From the NCBI RefSeq assembly GCF_963921235.1, contig NC_086097.1, positions 134,046,001 to 134,110,000 on the forward strand: a stretch of DNA of 64,000 nt, written 5' to 3'. The stretch is from Mobula hypostoma (lineage: Eukaryota). Within the stretch, counting starts at the first letter, position 1. Each line of letters starts with the position of its first letter. Shown here piece after piece: positions 22,425-53,160 of this stretch. The position numbers and the translations under genes were made by a program. A model generated the notes under the pieces. The model was given only the letters and a program-made list of their open reading frames with translations. It was not told the DNA's origin and searched no databases.

Positions 22425-24400
22425 CACATCCTCTTACTTACCCCTTGAAGAGGACCCACTCCAGACCATCAGAAAACTGTCTCCAACACCAGCACTGACC
22501 TCAGCAATTCTGAAGAACTCCCATCCACTGCCACCAAACTCATAGTTCCCCGACCTCACACTTCTCACTTCTGCCCCAACAAACCTGACTATCCGGGTAG
22601 GCCCATTGTCTTTGCCTGCTCCTGACCCCTGAACACATGTCCTCATACCTTGACTCCATTCTATCCCCCTTGGTTCAGTCCCTTCTCACCTACGTCCATG
22701 ACACTTCTCATGCTCTTGATCTCCTCACTAACTTTCAATTCCCTGGCCCTGACCATCTCATTTTCAACATAGATGTCCGGTCCCTATACACTTCTATCCC
22801 CATCGAGAAGGCCTTAAAGCTGTCTGCTTCTTTCGCAATAAAAGAACCAACCAGTCCTCCTCCTTCATCACACTTTTCCATCTGGCAGAACTGGTCCTAA
22901 CCCTCAACAATTTTTCTTTCAGCTCCTCCCACTTTTTCCAGACTCAAGGGGTCACCATGAGCACCCGCATGGGCCACAGCTTTTCATCAGCTACGTAGAA
23001 CAGTGTCTGTTCCAAGCCTTCCTGGGTAACGCTCCCCAACTCTTCCTCTGCTACATTGACAACTGCATTGGTGCTGCTTCATGCACCCAGTCTGAACTTG
23101 TCAAATTTCATCAACTTTGCCTCCAACTTCTGCTCTGCCCTTAAATTCAATTGGTCAATTTCTAACACCTCCTTCTCCTTTCTGAACCTCTCTGTCTCCA
23201 ACTCGGGAGACAATCTGTTGACCGACATCTTTTATAAACCTACCATTACTACGGCTATCTTGACTATCTCCTCCCACCCTGTCTCCTGTAAATATGCTAT
23301 CAGACATGTCATTCTTCTTCAAAGGGTTCACTTCTTCCACCATTTACGCTGTCCTCACCCACATCTCCTCCATTTCCCAGATATCCATGATCACTCGATC
23401 TTCCAGCTGCCTTAACAGTGATAGTGGTCCTACCATCATATGAGCTTCCACATCCAACGCACCATTCTCCGCAACTTCCACCATCTCCAAAGGGATCCAA
23501 TCACTAAACACATCTTTACCTCCTCACCCCCACCCCCAACTCTATGTTTTCTGTAGGGACCACTCCCTCCAGGATTCCTTTGTCCATTTGTTCCTCTTCA
23601 CTAATCCCCCTTCCAGAACTTATCCCTGCTAAGGGCTAAAGTTTTACAATTGCCCATTCATTTCCTCCCTCATCTCCATACTGGGCCCCAAACATTCCTT
23701 CCGGGTGAGACAACACTTCACCTGTGAATCTGCTGGGGTCGTCTACTGTATCTAGTACTCCTGATGTGGCTCCTCTACATTGGTGAGACCTCCCATAAAT
23801 CGGGGGCCACTTTGTCGAGAACCTTCGCTCCATCAGACACAAGTGGAGCTTCCTGGTGGCCAAACATTTTAATTCCAATTCCCATTCTCATTCCGACATG
23901 TCAGTCCTTGGCCTCCTCTTCTGCACCAATGAAGGCCACTTTCAGGATGGAGGAGCAATGCCTTATATTCTGTCTGGGTAGCCTCCAACCTGACGGCATG
24001 AATATTGATTTCTCCTTCCAGGTAAAAAAAATTCCCTCCCCTTCCCCTCTTCTTCTATCCCCCACTCTGGCATTTTGCCTCTTCTCACCTGCCTATCACT
24101 TCTCTCTCCTCCTTCCCTTTCTACTATGGTCCAATCTCCTCCCCTATCAGATTCCTTCCTCTCTAGCCCTTTACCTTTCCCACCTGCCTGGCTTCACCTA
24201 TGATTTTCTAACTATTCTCCTTTCCCTTCCCCACCTTTTTATTCTGGCATCTTCCCCCTTACTTTCCATTCCTGGTGAAGCATCTCAGCTCAAAACGTCA
24301 ACTGTTTATTCACCTCCATGGATGCTGCCTGACCCGCTGTGAACTCCCAGCATTTTGAGCATGTTGGCTGGGATTTCCAGCATCTGCAGAATTTCTTGTG
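22425..24400 (+). mobile_element. Penelope-like retroelement (RT + GIY-YIG), decayed
   Basis: SYLDSILSPLVQSL..YVHDT, DVRSLYTSIP, QGVTMSTRMG, YIDN (YIDD motif), GVVYCI...LLYIGET (GIY-YIG), pyrimidine-rich tail and terminal hammerhead-like motif at 24267-24304. Confidence 0.9.
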
Positions 24401-26248: not shown

Positions 26249-26499
26249 TGTTGTGTATTTAATATTTAAGTAATATTTGAGTACTCTTGTAAATATATTG
26301 CTTGATTAAGCATTCTTTTTTCCTTAAATAATTCAGTACAAGTTATATAGATATAAATTTGTGAATTACATATGCCATCATGCTACCACATGATATATGT
26401 GTGCCTCACTTAAAGTAAACACAAAGTTAGACCTGCATTTTTGGACTCCTCTGTCTTCCGTTTCAATTAGTTTAATGTTTTGAAGTTACAAAAAAAAAA
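26249..26499 (+). repeat. 5' LTR
   Basis: Begins TGTTGTGTATTTAATATTTAAGTAATATTTGA and ends ...TTTTGAAGTTACAAAA; collinear with 29474-29722. Confidence 0.85.
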
Positions 26500-26748
26500 T
26501 TGCTGACCAGGTATTTTTAAAACAAACCCAAGACAGCTATTGACCTGATGAAGCTCCGTGAGATGTTCATGTTAAAAAAAAATGCAGCGAGAAACAGCGA
26601 GTAAAAAAAAAACACAGCACAGCACATGCATAAACAGTCTTTGGAAGGGAAGAGATGAGTGAGTTTTTAAAATAAAGACAGAAAACAGAAGAATTTATAG
26701 GTTTATAAAGAATAAGTACCGAGTAATAATAATTATGAAAAATCAGAA

Positions 26749-27990
26749 ATGGCTGGCTACATTGGAATGATAGACATGTTTGATTACACATTAGATAACT
26801 GGATTTTTATACTGAGCAAATTCAACAGAATTTTCAAGCAAATAAAATAACCAATGAGAAACATATACCAATTTTGCTGAGAGCATTGGGTTTAAAGGCA
26901 TATAGTTTGCTTCAAATTTTGACTGCTCGGACCAAACCAACAGAAATGAGCTTTGCTGACATTATCAAAGTGATGCAGGAATATTTAGAACCAAAGCCAT
27001 TGTTCATTGCAGAATGCTGTAGGTTTCAAAAGCATAATCAAAAAGAAGAGAAATCCACTTCAGCCTACGTAGCTGAACTGAAGAGATTGTCAGTTTGGTA
27101 ATGGACTTAATGACACACTAAGAGATCGCTTAATTTGTGGAATCTTACAAGATAGCATTCAAAAACGGCTCCTAGCTGAAATACAACATGCATTTAAAAG
27201 AACAGTTGAAATTGCTCTTTCAATGGAAAGTGTAGATAGAGATGCAATTGAGTTGCAATCAGGAATGAAAGTGAGCATAAACAAAACTGCAAAGTCCAAA
27301 CAGAAACCAGCCTGGCTGAACAGATTGTGTTAATGTTGTGGCAAAGTCTCACATACACCAAAAAAATGCATGTTTAAAGGTGAAAATTGCAGAAAATGCA
27401 ACAAAGTAGGACACATACAAAGGATTAATTGGGCAGACAAAAATAAGTGAAGAGAAAATGTGAAGCACAGAAAAGAGAAAAAGTCAAGCTGCAATTTCAA
27501 AACGAGCATTATTCTACATGCTGTTGATGAAAAATCTGATAATGATGAAAGTGACACAGGACTGAGTAACCTTGGGATATACAGTGTGAAAATTAACAAT
27601 ATGGTTTATGCCAGAAGTGAACGACAAATTAATTAAAATGGAATTAGACACTGGTTCAGCTGCTGCAGTCATATCACAAAATGAGTTTGAGAGGCATTTC
27701 AAAGATACTAAACCGAAGTCTGTAGATATCCAATTAAGAACTTATACTGGAGAAAAGATAACTCCTGTGGGAATGACATTCTTAAAAGTAGAATACAATT
27801 TTGGATTTTACCACATACAAGCTAAATTGAGCTTGTGATTAGTAAAAGCAGGAGGACCAGCACTGTGCGGGCATGATTGGCTGAGCCAACTACAACTTGA
27901 TTGGAGATCCATCCATCATTTGCATGCCACATCTCCTACAATAAAGTCAACTGAAAGTGAACTAAGAAAGGTACAAGATGATGCCACAAC
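26749..27990 (+). pseudogene. Gypsy gag-protease remnant (stops and frameshifts)
   Basis: MAGYIG... start; YLEPKPLFIAECCRFQKHNQ...YVAELKRL (gag); CCHC knuckle remnants at ~27330-27430 (CRKCNKVGHIQR); MELDTGSAAAVIS aspartic protease motif; GGPALCGHDWLSQLQLDW. Confidence 0.85.
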
Positions 27991-28039
27991 TGTCTCCATG
28001 CCAAACATCATGAACCGTTGCCCCACAGAGGACAAGCAA

Positions 28040-28573
28040 GTGTTGGTGCCATCCTCTGTGCCTCTGGTTCGAAAGTACATTGGACCAAGGAACGACTATG
28101 CTGCTCAGGGGAACCATGAAAGTGACGAAAGCAGTGATCTGACTACGACAGTGTTTGTAAGGAACATATCTGAGAGACCTCCTGATCTGTTAATCAGGCT
28201 GTTACTTGCAAAATGTGGCTTGGTTTTAAGATGGGAGAGAGTCAAAGGAGTTTCTGGATAGTTGCAAGCATTTGGCTTTTGTGAGTATATAGAACCAGAA
28301 TCTACTCTGCATGCATTTAGGTTATTGCATGAACATCAAGTAGATGCAAAGACCAAAGCCCAGCCGGATGAATGGAAGGCCAAAAAGAAAGGAGTCAACA
28401 GAGATACAAAAATAGAGGATTTATCAGATGATGTGAATGAGGAAACCAAAAGGGGAGACCAGATCATAAGGGGAGCAATAGAAGGATTAATAAGGGAATA
28501 CTCCAGTGAACTAAATGTCCCTTCCCTAGATTAAGATACATGAACTAGAAGAAGCAAAAAAGAATAAGAAGAA
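28040..28573 (+). pseudogene. rbm25: Intronless (transduced) fragment of RNA-binding protein 25, RRM region
   Basis: VLVP...TTTVFVRNISERPPDLLIRLLLAKCGLVLRWERVKGVSG*LQAFGFCEYIEPESTLHAFRLLH...VDAKTKAQPDEWKAKKK...GAIEGLIREYSSELN closely follows RBM25 (TTTVFVGNISEKASDMLIRQLLAKCGLVLSWKRVQGASGKLQAFGFCEYKEPESTLRALRLLH...). In-frame stops at 28259, 28532, 28541 and 28565. Confidence 0.93.
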
Positions 28574-28766
28574 AGTTGGCTACCAGTGTCAGAACCACTT
28601 CCTGCAGTCTCAGAGTCAACTCATACAACCAGCATGGAGGAGGCCCCAGTACCTGAGATTGTTTTCAAAACCACAAGTTTCACCTGCCAGGCAGAGTGAT
28701 CCCCTTTGTCAGAAAAGATGTTATCACACAAGAGTAAGAAGCCCCCCACAGTGATTAAATCTTTAG
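28574..28766 (+). pseudogene. C-terminal tail of the Gypsy pol polyprotein
   Basis: P/E/T/S-rich SEPLPAVSESTHTTSMEEAPVPEIV, then (frameshifted) KRCYHTRVRSPPQ*LNL*, resembling the RRYPxRxRxPPxRL terminus of Gypsy pol. Confidence 0.65.
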
Positions 28767-28834
28767 GCCTGAATGGGACAATTTAAACTTTACTATGCTG
28801 GGGATGCCTTTATGGTAGTTATATTATATAGTAT

Positions 28835-29399
28835 AGGAAAGGTACGTCGCATCCGGAGTTTCTTCGGTTAGTGGACGATTTCCCTCCATGCCTCTCTGAC
28901 GTGTGTGGTGAGTGGCCAAGTGGTTAGGGTGTTGGACTAACGATCTGAAGGTCGTGGGTTTGAGCCTTGGCCGTGGCAGTGTGTGTCTCCTTGAGCGAGG
29001 CACTTAACCACACAATGCTCCAGTCTACCCAGCTGAGAATGGGTACCAGCAAAAATGCTGGGGGTTAACCTCATGATAGACTGGCATCCTATCCGGGGGT
29101 GGGGGGGAGGAGTCTCATACTCTCAGTCGCTTTACACCACGGAAACCGGCATAAGCACCGGCCTGATGAGCCACAAGGTTCGTGACAGACTTTAATTAAT
29201 CTCTCTGACGTAGTGGGGAATCACGTACGAGGCAAGTTACAAAAGTGGTTTGCCATTGCCTTCTGCCGGGTGAGTTTCCAAAGAGATCACCAGCTCGTAA
29301 CCCAGCACGGATGGAAAGCATGCAGGGGAGCCAGCTAGATTCGAACTCGGGACCTTTCATCCCGAGGTCCAACGCTGATGCCACTACGCCACCAGCCGG
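28835..29399 (-). mobile_element. tRNA-derived SINE with RTE-like segment, split by a second SINE
   Basis: Minus strand: A box TGGCGTAGTGG, B box GAGTTCGAATC, then GAAGGCAATGGCAAACCACT (motif typical of RTE/BovB-related SINEs). Confidence 0.75.
28903..29200 (+). mobile_element. tRNA-derived SINE (Meta/CORE-like body) with 11-bp TSD
   Basis: A box TGGCCAAGTGG, B box GGTTTGAGCC, body CCTTGAGCGAGGCACTTAACC...GATAGACTGGCATCCTATCC. Flanked by CTCTCTGACGT at 28892-28902 and 29201-29211. Confidence 0.85.
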
Positions 29400-29473
29400 G
29401 TCATTATACTATACTACTTATATATTTGAGATGCATTCTATTGAGTTAGAGTTCATTGCTAAGCAGGGAGAAG

Positions 29474-29722
29474 TATTGTGTAGTTAATATTTAAGTAATA
29501 TTTGACTAATCTTGAAAATATATTGTTTGATTAAGCATTTTTGTTTGTTTAAGTAATTCATTACAATTTATATGTATAAATACGTGAATTGCATATGTCA
29601 TCGCGCTACTGCATGATACAAGCCTGTTTCGTCTGAAGTAAACACGAAGTTGGACCCGCATTCTCGGACTCCTGGGTCTTCCTTTGAATTAGTCTAATGT
29701 TTTGAAGTTACAAAACATTACA
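29474..29722 (+). repeat. 3' LTR
   Basis: Begins TATTGTGTAGTTAATATTTAAGTAATATTTGA directly after the PPT and ends GAAGTTACAAAACATTACA. Confidence 0.85.
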
Positions 29723-50529: not shown

Positions 50530-53160
50530 TAGTCATGGAGTCATCAAACACTACAACATCTAAACAGGCCTATTGGCCCATCTAGTCCATGCCAAAACAT
50601 TAATCTACCTATTCCCATCGACTTGCACCAGATCATAGCACGCTGTACCCATCCCATCCATCTACCTATCCAAATTTCTCTTAAGTGTTGAAATTGAACC
50701 CGCATCCACCAGTTCTACTGGCAGCTCATTCCACACTCTCACCACCCTCTGAGTGAAGAAATTCTCCCTCATGTTCCCCTTAAGCACTTCACCTTTCACC
50801 CTTAGCCTATGACCTGTAGTTCTAGTCTTACCCAACCTCAGTGCAAAAAGCCTGCTTACATTTACCCTCTCTATAACCCTCATTATTTTGCATACCTATC
50901 AAATCTCCCCTTGTTCTTCTACACGCTATAGAATAATGTCCTAATCTATTCAAGTCCTCAAGTCCTCAAGTCCTGGCAACATGCTTGTAAATTTTCTCTG
51001 CACTCTTTCAGTCTTATTGACATCTATCCTGCAAGTAGGTGATGAAAACTGCACACAGTGCTTCACTACGGCCTCACCAACATCTTATACAACTTCAACA
51101 AAACATCGCGACTGTACTCAGAACTTTGATTTGTGAAGGCCAATGTGCCAAAAGCTCTCTTTACAACCCTATCCAAATGTGACACCACTTTCAAGGATTT
51201 TTGGATCTGTATTCCCAGATCCCTCTGTTTTACCACTCTCCTCAGTGCCCTGCCACTCACATGTAAGTCCTACCCTGGTTAGTCCTGTCAAAGTGCAACA
51301 CCTCACACTTGTCTGCATTAAATTCCATCTTCCATTATTCAGTCATCTTTCCAGCTGATCCAGATCCCACTGCAAGCTTTGATAGTCTTCCTCACTATCC
51401 ACTACACTCCCAATCTTGGTATCATCCACAAATTTGCTGATCCAGTTTACCACATTATCATCTAGATCAGTCAGATCCCTGCAGATCCCTGTATCATCCA
51501 GATCATCCAGATCCCTGTGGCACCCCACTAGTCACAGGCCTCCAGTCAAAGATGCAACCATCTCCTGCAAAGCCAATGTCTGATCCATGGTGACACAGTA
51601 GTGTAGTGGTTAGGACAACACTTTACAGTACAGGCAACCCTGGTTCAATTAGCATCGCTGCCTGTAAAGGAGTTTGTACGTTCTCCCCGTGTCCACGTGG
51701 GTTTCCTCCAGAGGCTCTGATTTCCTGCTGCAGTCCAAAGGTGTATGGTCACTGTAAATTATCCCATGATTAGGCTAGGATTAAATTAGGGGATTGGTGG
51801 GCAGTGCAGCTCAAAGGGCCAGGAGGGCATATTCCACGCTGTGTCTCAATCAATCAATCAATAAATAAATAGCTAACTAACTTGAATGCCACGGACTGAA
51901 CCTTCCTGACCAACCTCCCATACGAACACCCCAGGCTCACCGGCCTACAATTTCCTGACTTATTCTTAAACAACAGCACAGCATTAGCTATCCTCCAATC
52001 CTCCAGCACCTCATCTGTGACTAAGGACGTTTTGAATATCTCTGTGTGGGTCCCTCCAATTTCTGCACTAGCCTCCCACAGTGTCCGAGGGAACACTTTG
52101 TCAGGCCCTGGGGTTTTTGTCCACCTCAAGGCAGCAAACATCTCCTCCTCTGTAATCTGTATATGGTCTATTACCTCTCTATTGCTTTGCCTCATTTTTA
52201 TATACTCTGTGTCTGTCTTCCAAGTAAATACAGATGCCAAAATTTCATTTAAGATCTTCCCCATTTTTTTCACCTCCATGCATAGATGACCATTCTGATC
52301 TTCTAGACAGCCCACTTTATTCCTTGCTATGCTTTTGCAGTTAATATATCTGTCAAAGCCTCTGAGATTCTCCTTCACCTTGTCTGCTAGAGTAACCTCA
52401 TGCCTTCTTTTGCACCTCCTGATTTCCTTCCTAAGTGTTCTCTTACATTTCTCGCACTCCTCAAGTATTTAATTTGTTCTTGCTTGCTTATACCTGCTGT
52501 GCGCCTCCTTCCTTTTCTTAACCAGAGCCTCAATATCTCTAAAAAGCCAAGGTTCCCTAAACCTGTTATCCTTGTCTTTTATTCTGACAGGAAAATACAA
52601 ACTCTGTACTCTCATAATTTCACTTTTGAAGGCCTCCCACTTACCAAGTACACCTTTGCCAGAAAACAACCTGTCCCAATCCACACTTTCCAGATCCTTT
52701 CTGATACCATCAAAATTGGCTTTTCTCCAATTTAGAATCTCAATGCGAGGACCAGACCTATCCTCCATAATTATCTTGAAACTGATAGCATTATGATCAC
52801 TTGAATTAAGATGTTTCCCTACACAAACTTCTATCACCGGCCCAGTCTCATTCCCAAATAGAAGATCTAATATCATACACTCTCTCAATGGGACCTCTAT
52901 GTACTGATTTAGGAAACTTTCCTGAGCACATTTGACTAACTCTTTCCCATCCAGTCCTTTTACAGTGTGGAAGTCTCAGTCAATGCATGATAAAATCACC
53001 TACTATAGCAACTTTATGTTTCTTGCAATAGTCTGCAAATCTCTTTACAAATTTGCTTCTCTAAATCCCATGGACTGTTGGGTGGTCTGTAATATAGCCC
53101 CATTAATGTGGACGTCCCTTTCGTATTCAATTCCATTCATATAGGCTTAGTAGACGAGCT
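50530..53160 (-). mobile_element. CR1 LINE ORF2 (endonuclease to 3' UTR), decayed
   Basis: ILDLLFGNETGPV..SSDHNAISF; KTPGPDKVFPRTLWE; WISKFVDDTKIG; RDLGIQI; ENFFTQRVVRVWNELP. Confidence 0.9.
51588..51870 (+). mobile_element. V-SINE inserted in CR1
   Basis: tRNA-like head GTAGTGTAGTGGTTAG...GGTTCAATT; tail (TCAA)n(TAAA)n. Confidence 0.8.

Follow-up and report, generated by a model that had tools for sequence, protein, structure and literature searches.

How a fragment of a host splicing factor comes to lie between the two LTRs of a retrotransposon, and whether it does anything for the element that carries it, are the questions raised by a locus on contig NC_086097.1 of Mobula hypostoma. The locus occupies positions 26249-29722 of the stretch of DNA that was analysed, which is 64,000 nucleotides long and is called the window below. 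A sequence-only reading had described it as an LTR element in which a piece of spliced host RBM25 mRNA took the place of the pol core, and had expected a family of such copies elsewhere in the genome.

Anatomy of the element and its siblings

The order LTR, primer-binding site (PBS), gag, protease, cargo, pol tail, polypurine tract (PPT) and LTR that the sequence-only reading had proposed is found, all on the plus strand, although the PBS has decayed in the window copy. The 5′ LTR (26249-26499, its end being approximate) starts with TG and has decayed into an A-run at its 3′ end. It shares 83% identity with the 3′ LTR (29474-29722) over 240 columns, a K2P distance of 0.19. The decayed PBS lies at 26500-26512, and other copies carry at the same place a clearer, TGGCGACGAG-like motif, which we take to be of the tRNA-Ser type. 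The gag gene with its CCHC knuckle (26749-27589) is broken by frameshifts and stops and is followed by an equally broken aspartic protease with a linker that reaches the start of RT (27590-27981). Together, 26749-27981 correspond in several frames to residues 1 to about 420 of intact single-ORF fish Gag-Pol proteins of 1,312-1,322 aa. The Pfam matches to zf-CCHC and to the aspartyl protease are weak and fall under the curated cut-offs, and the RRM match of the cargo is weak too. RT, RNase H and integrase, said to be absent, indeed give no Pfam match in the three plus frames of 26700-28835. What is left of pol is its C-terminal tail, from 3′ of the integrase core (28576-28766), and the PPT lies at 29462-29473. 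No target-site duplication (TSD) is visible flanking the window copy; near-TSDs occur in two of 16 other copies, most of the 16 being without one clean end.

Between the pol tail and the PPT lies a later insertion of about 570 nt (28836-29404) at an AT-rich site, which the sequence-only reading had left out and which contains two pieces of dispersed repeats that look SINE-like by eye. It is missing in the other copies that span the site and does not belong to the RBM25-cargo family. Part of it (28912-29026) is also present at loci L004, L036 and L042, and another part (29299-29399) at L021. Elsewhere in the window, a 204-codon open stretch (23728-24342, plus strand) resembles by eye the 3′ end of a LINE ORF2, and two adjoining frames (51854-52975, minus strand) presumably represent the endonuclease-to-RT linker of a CR1-type LINE. 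Rfam gave three matches, at chance level, and ARAGORN none.

The LTR-sharing partner that had been called for exists in decayed form. The sibling L081 carries the same LTR and encodes RT, RNase H and integrase in that order with no env, and the roughly 2.5 kb holding these domains is the stretch that the cargo replaced. A second pol-bearing sibling, L080, is likewise decayed, and no intact autonomous copy was seen. The nearest named relatives of the shell are K02A2.6-like or Gypsy proteins of fish with a single-ORF Gag-Pol. With its paired LTRs, PBS and PPT, and with the PR-RT-RH-IN order without env in its parent, the element is a Ty3/Gypsy LTR retrotransposon, and we suspect that the parent belongs to the Mag type. 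Large internal deletions reduce the pol-bearing sibling at L080:1911-2816 (also L046) to about 0.9 kb, compared with 2.5 kb in L081, and deleted non-autonomous forms without cargo therefore also exist.

The RBM25 insert and its switch points

The insert spans 27982-28575. Its identity as cDNA of the RBM25 RRM was read correctly from the start, whereas its length, put at about 530 bp, measures about 590 nt. Translated with its stop read as X, the insert has RBM25 as its named best matches (61%, E ~1e-52), as had been anticipated, and the best match overall is an RBM25-like shark isoform from Heptranchias (70%, E 1e-70). A PDB sequence search with the insert returned generic RRMs only. In the exon numbering of this analysis, the insert consists of the tail of exon 3, a cassette exon, exons 4-6, most of exon 7 and scraps of exons 9 and 10. 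Exons 4-6 make up the RRM, exon 6 having a 27-nt deletion. The host rbm25 gene lies 34 Mb off on the same contig (G000:C1 ~99.79-99.84 Mb, minus strand). The last 9-10 nt of its exon 3, the cassette exon and exons 4-7 are joined directly in the insert, which skips five introns of 5805, 3425, 1738, 2778 and 4824 nt and bears out the supposed origin from spliced host mRNA. The original capture was longer: in long copies it covers about 1,070 nt (host cDNA ~161-1234), beginning in the tail of exon 3 and ending just inside exon 10. Among 18 aligned copies, six extend to host cDNA 1230-1234, and three more end alike by eye.

The cassette exon (27992-28039) is 48 nt long and in frame, and has its host counterpart at L036:9586-9633, equivalent to G000:C1:99832586-99832633 on the minus strand. 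Over 14 aa it is identical to the Heptranchias isoform. It is present in shark isoforms and missing in the four RBM25 proteins compared, including those of gar, frog and lizard. In a relative, a host-like contig (X18 contig 20, from a presumed RNA run) has it spliced in; taken together, this indicates a cartilaginous fish as the host. A solo LTR of the same family (L041:3644-3883) sits in antisense orientation to rbm25, about 36 kb upstream of its start exon; given the size of the family, this is probably chance.

Both ends of the insert fall on short sequences common to donor and acceptor. At the 5′ switch point, the 7-nt microhomology TGCCACA (27982-27988) occurs both in the element and in the last nucleotides of host exon 3, and the protease frame runs on in the host frame. 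At the 3′ switch point, the purine-rich 9-nt microhomology GAGAAGAAA (28567-28575) joins host exon 10 to the end of pol and is common to host rbm25 and the sibling L081. When the best 20 of 39 non-self protease matches were chosen blind to cargo, 12 shells led into RBM25 and the remaining eight, from the identical position after the protease, into RT. The spacing at the 5′ junction has a mode of 144 nt (14 of 26 copies) and is 141 nt in the window copy, in frame. The idea that both junctions are in frame was discarded: it is true of the window copy only, whereas neither the long forms nor the modal trimmed form carry the host frame on into that of the pol tail.

These junctions bear on how the insert arrived. 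LINE- and SINE-like repeats are plentiful nearby, and a LINE-made RBM25 retrocopy might have landed in a pre-deleted Gypsy element that was then amplified or segmentally duplicated. However, neither a poly(A) tail nor a TSD bounds the insert, its 3′ end lies inside exon 10, and microhomologies are found at both ends. The element sequences that flank it are separated by about 2.5 kb in the sibling and show no duplication, and the copies are spread over 19 contigs with differing flanks where compared. An ordinary LINE retrocopy, which the sequence-only reading had named as an outcome that would refute it, is therefore extremely improbable.

It is proposed instead that an env-less single-ORF Ty3/Gypsy element co-packaged spliced rbm25 mRNA and that, inside the particle, RT switched templates twice at the short microhomologies. 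About 1,070 nt of mRNA, from the exon 3 tail to the exon 10 start, would thereby have taken the place of RT, RNase H and integrase. As the chimera kept both LTRs, the PBS and the PPT, abundant pol-bearing siblings could have copied it in trans, and an old burst would have brought it to about 2,000 copies. During this burst the purine-rich part encoding the RE repeats may have been deleted repeatedly, in a presumed order of steps, and the shell may have recombined with helper genomes, the cargo being a passenger throughout. This origin in its entirety, comprising the double template switch, mobilisation in trans, serial trimming of the RE repeats, helper recombination and a passenger cargo, is held with good confidence. 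It builds on the observed anatomy, loss of introns, microhomologies, shared junctions, copy count, siblings and neutral decay.

Size, forms and decay of the family

Searching the DNA with the chimeric stretch yielded 3,261 candidates. The 40 that were scored are all near-full-length, and the 39 besides the window copy are 77-81% identical to it and lie on 19 contigs. Of 29 other copies retrieved, about 19 contain 140 nt or more of the 3′ LTR. The sampled copies are top-scoring matches and are biased towards the subfamily of the window copy. Junctions were counted with 21-mers, allowing up to two mismatches: the 5′ chimeric junction occurs at 1,172 places (control 3) and the junction that continues into pol at 2,491 (control 0). 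The predicted family of LTR-borne RBM25 copies with shared junctions thus exists at no fewer than 1,172 places. Of the known copies, the chimeric 21-mer recovers 6 of 12 in one set and 21 of 30 in another, and it matches none of eight pol-bearing ones; corrected for this sensitivity, the count gives an estimate of 1,700-2,300 copies. A trimmed form whose cargo passes from exon 7 directly into exon 9 accounts for 667 matches compared with 191 for the intact exon 7 form, the host included, so that roughly 78% of classified matches share the deletion. The window copy, itself dead, belongs to this trimmed majority.

The copies are old and have decayed neutrally. In a set of 42 they are star-like, with a private divergence of 0.097, a pairwise divergence of 0.18 and 0.11 between the closest pair. 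In the three of 16 copies with four clean ends, the LTR-LTR K2P distance is 0.19, 0.25 and 0.28. An attempt at dating by the pedigree rate of the epaulette shark (7e-10 per generation), taken from part of the source (PMC10587355), was abandoned because it gives an implausible 1e8 generations. The low-frequency variants of the 42 copies are synonymous in a proportion of 0.21-0.24, compared with 0.22-0.28 expected under neutrality, and in-frame stops occur within the covered codons of 44 out of 54 copies. Selection tests on these 54 of more than 1,000 copies gave no sign of cargo function and no intact cargo ORF under purifying selection, and no Gag-RBM25 fusion protein was found among the protein matches listed.

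Even so, the capture could be the same and the cargo have aided the element, an in-frame Gag-protease-RRM(-RE) fusion or its RNA improving packaging, processing or export and so raising the copy number. The 5′ junction is in frame and the relatives have a single-ORF Gag-Pol, which speaks for this reading, but an in-frame junction arises by chance in one case out of three. The RRM part is kept and the RE part trimmed in the copies examined; against this, slippage readily deletes repeats, and the copies were picked with queries from the RRM side, so that loss of the RRM is under-seen. A chimera about half as numerous as the pol-type junctions might also be read as successful. At 20 positions at least 70% of the copies differ from the host, and all 20 differences are synonymous, which also counts in favour of this reading. 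Of these 20 sites three can be polarised, and at all three the host-like contigs of relatives carry the letter of the copies (p=0.017 over third positions, among the rows listed); therefore it is the host that changed there. The CpG direction at the 20 sites (1 of 20) is uninformative. The locus L082, picked for its host-like letter, is an ordinary family member, and the locus L094 belongs to the family as well. Moreover, lineage-level variation in the cargo is almost nil for changes of either kind, and the sole marker that separates trimmed from long forms is non-synonymous. Help from the cargo is accordingly considered unlikely.

Host synonymous divergence (0.125-0.154) is slightly above that of the copies (0.10-0.11). 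Such near-equality is as expected if amplification soon followed capture and the host has drifted since, and the 20 synonymous differences fit host drift. The broader possibility that the captured piece mattered, either through an advantage of the fusion or its RNA or through small RNAs from the copies that target rbm25 mRNA and drive synonymous divergence of this essential host gene, is also given little credence. If true, it would make this a vertebrate retrotransposon that exploits, or is in conflict with, a captured splicing factor.

Two seemingly shared changes in the cargo proved to be artefacts. An apparent common deletion in the RRM reflects the 27-nt deletion of the query itself: nearly all copies from the DNA search have a deletion near host 470-560, at places that differ from copy to copy; one of 12 protease-selected copies has a deletion in this region, which some of the 12 do not cover. 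Shared non-synonymous changes at host 752/753 are a misalignment at the exon 7-to-9 deletion.

The shell has a different history. In 29 copies compared over both parts, intermediate-frequency non-CpG variants occupy 33 of 823 sites in gag-protease, 19 of them at third positions (p=0.004), compared with 4 of 565 sites in the cargo (p=1e-4). Since clonal descent predicts equal depth, the greater variability of the shell suggests that it recombined with diverse helper genomes, which would in turn be indirect evidence of co-packaging. The same diversity could be explained by recurrent capture, in which, instead of one founder, different shells each underwent an independent switch at identical microhomologies, and a recurrent switch site has been described for BLASTOPIA in the parts of Tan 2016 drawn on here (PMC5131818). 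However, the copies share the same cassette-exon isoform and the same 5′ point, the long forms share the 3′ point in exon 10, and the exon 7-to-9 deletion is common to most classified matches. A single founder with subsequent recombination is thus preferred, recurrent capture being very unlikely.

Relation to known captures

Acutely transforming retroviruses that carry v-onc sequences have exchanged viral genes for host cDNA, which is often fused in frame to gag, and they depend on a helper. The analogy drawn in the sequence-only reading holds for the mechanism, but the cargo gave no sign of function: the RBM25 element is env-less and non-infectious, was amplified in the germline and gives no evidence of selection on its cargo.

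The closest precedents are LTR-mediated retrocopies of animals. As described in the excerpts of Tan 2016 used here (PMC5131818), internal ORFs between LTRs are replaced by partial spliced mRNAs; the two switch points show microsimilarity (median 6 bp), a poly(A) tail is lacking, and the products undergo secondary non-autonomous retrotransposition. The cases are young and have one or few insertion sites, nine fly retrocopies accounting for 18 of them. The RBM25 family shows the features tested, namely an intronless partial mRNA, 7- and 9-nt microsimilarity, no poly(A) or TSD at the insert and shared switch points, and qualifies on these as an LTR-mediated retrocopy in the sense of that text. 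Unlike the cases given there, it numbers at least 1,172 copies, is old, has a nested series of cargo trimming and has a shell more diverse than its cargo. Maize Bs1 is also a non-autonomous LTR element with spliced host fragments and switch points common to its copies, but, going by the parts of the sources used (Tan 2016; PMC13317346), it is a plant element with three parental genes, 1-5 copies and a reported hybrid protein. The RBM25 family has one parental gene, thousands of copies and no intact copy seen. The crocodilian elements CrocERV29 (KIT-ligand) and CrocERV31 (nectin3) are old vertebrate LTR captures that were amplified with their cargo. Unlike the RBM25 element, an env-less Gypsy with far more copies and a neutrally decaying cargo, they are retroviral ERVs, with nine intact KIT-ligand ORFs and purifying selection reported in the portion of the paper drawn on (PMC4299795). 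The mechanism is thus already known (Tan 2016, as excerpted); the novelty lies in the RBM25 family and in its size, which exceeds by a factor of 100-1,000 that of the published amplified cases in these partial sources, with their one to nine copies or few insertion sites. The family is not described in the literature searched on RBM25 retrocopies and stingray Gypsy retrocopies, though Repbase, Dfam or supplements may list it, and the consulted sections of the stingray genome paper (PMC10787021) mention neither RBM25 nor Gypsy.

LTR-mediated retroposition can thus turn one captured mRNA fragment into a vertebrate repeat family of thousands. An old state of rbm25, with the alternative exon common to the shark isoform, survives in about 2,000 dead copies. 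These serve as a built-in neutral clock for a lineage that evolves slowly and as a record of cargo trimming and of probable helper recombination. In practice, RBM25-like gene counts may be inflated and RNA reads mis-mapped. In a sequencing run from another organism, the exon sites are covered by 17-29 contigs whose exon-exon joints are diverged, suggesting that RBM25-cargo copies occur there too.

Two further candidate cargo loci, L095 (labelled SUDS3) and L096 (labelled MYH16), were considered as users of the same shell and rejected, as neither gives a blastn match. By tblastx the window element is 30-50% identical to the gag/protease of L095 and matches nothing in L096. Both loci have their own, younger LTR pairs (91-94% identical). 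Capture followed by amplification may therefore be recurrent in the lineage, the shell of L095 being a different, distantly related Gypsy.
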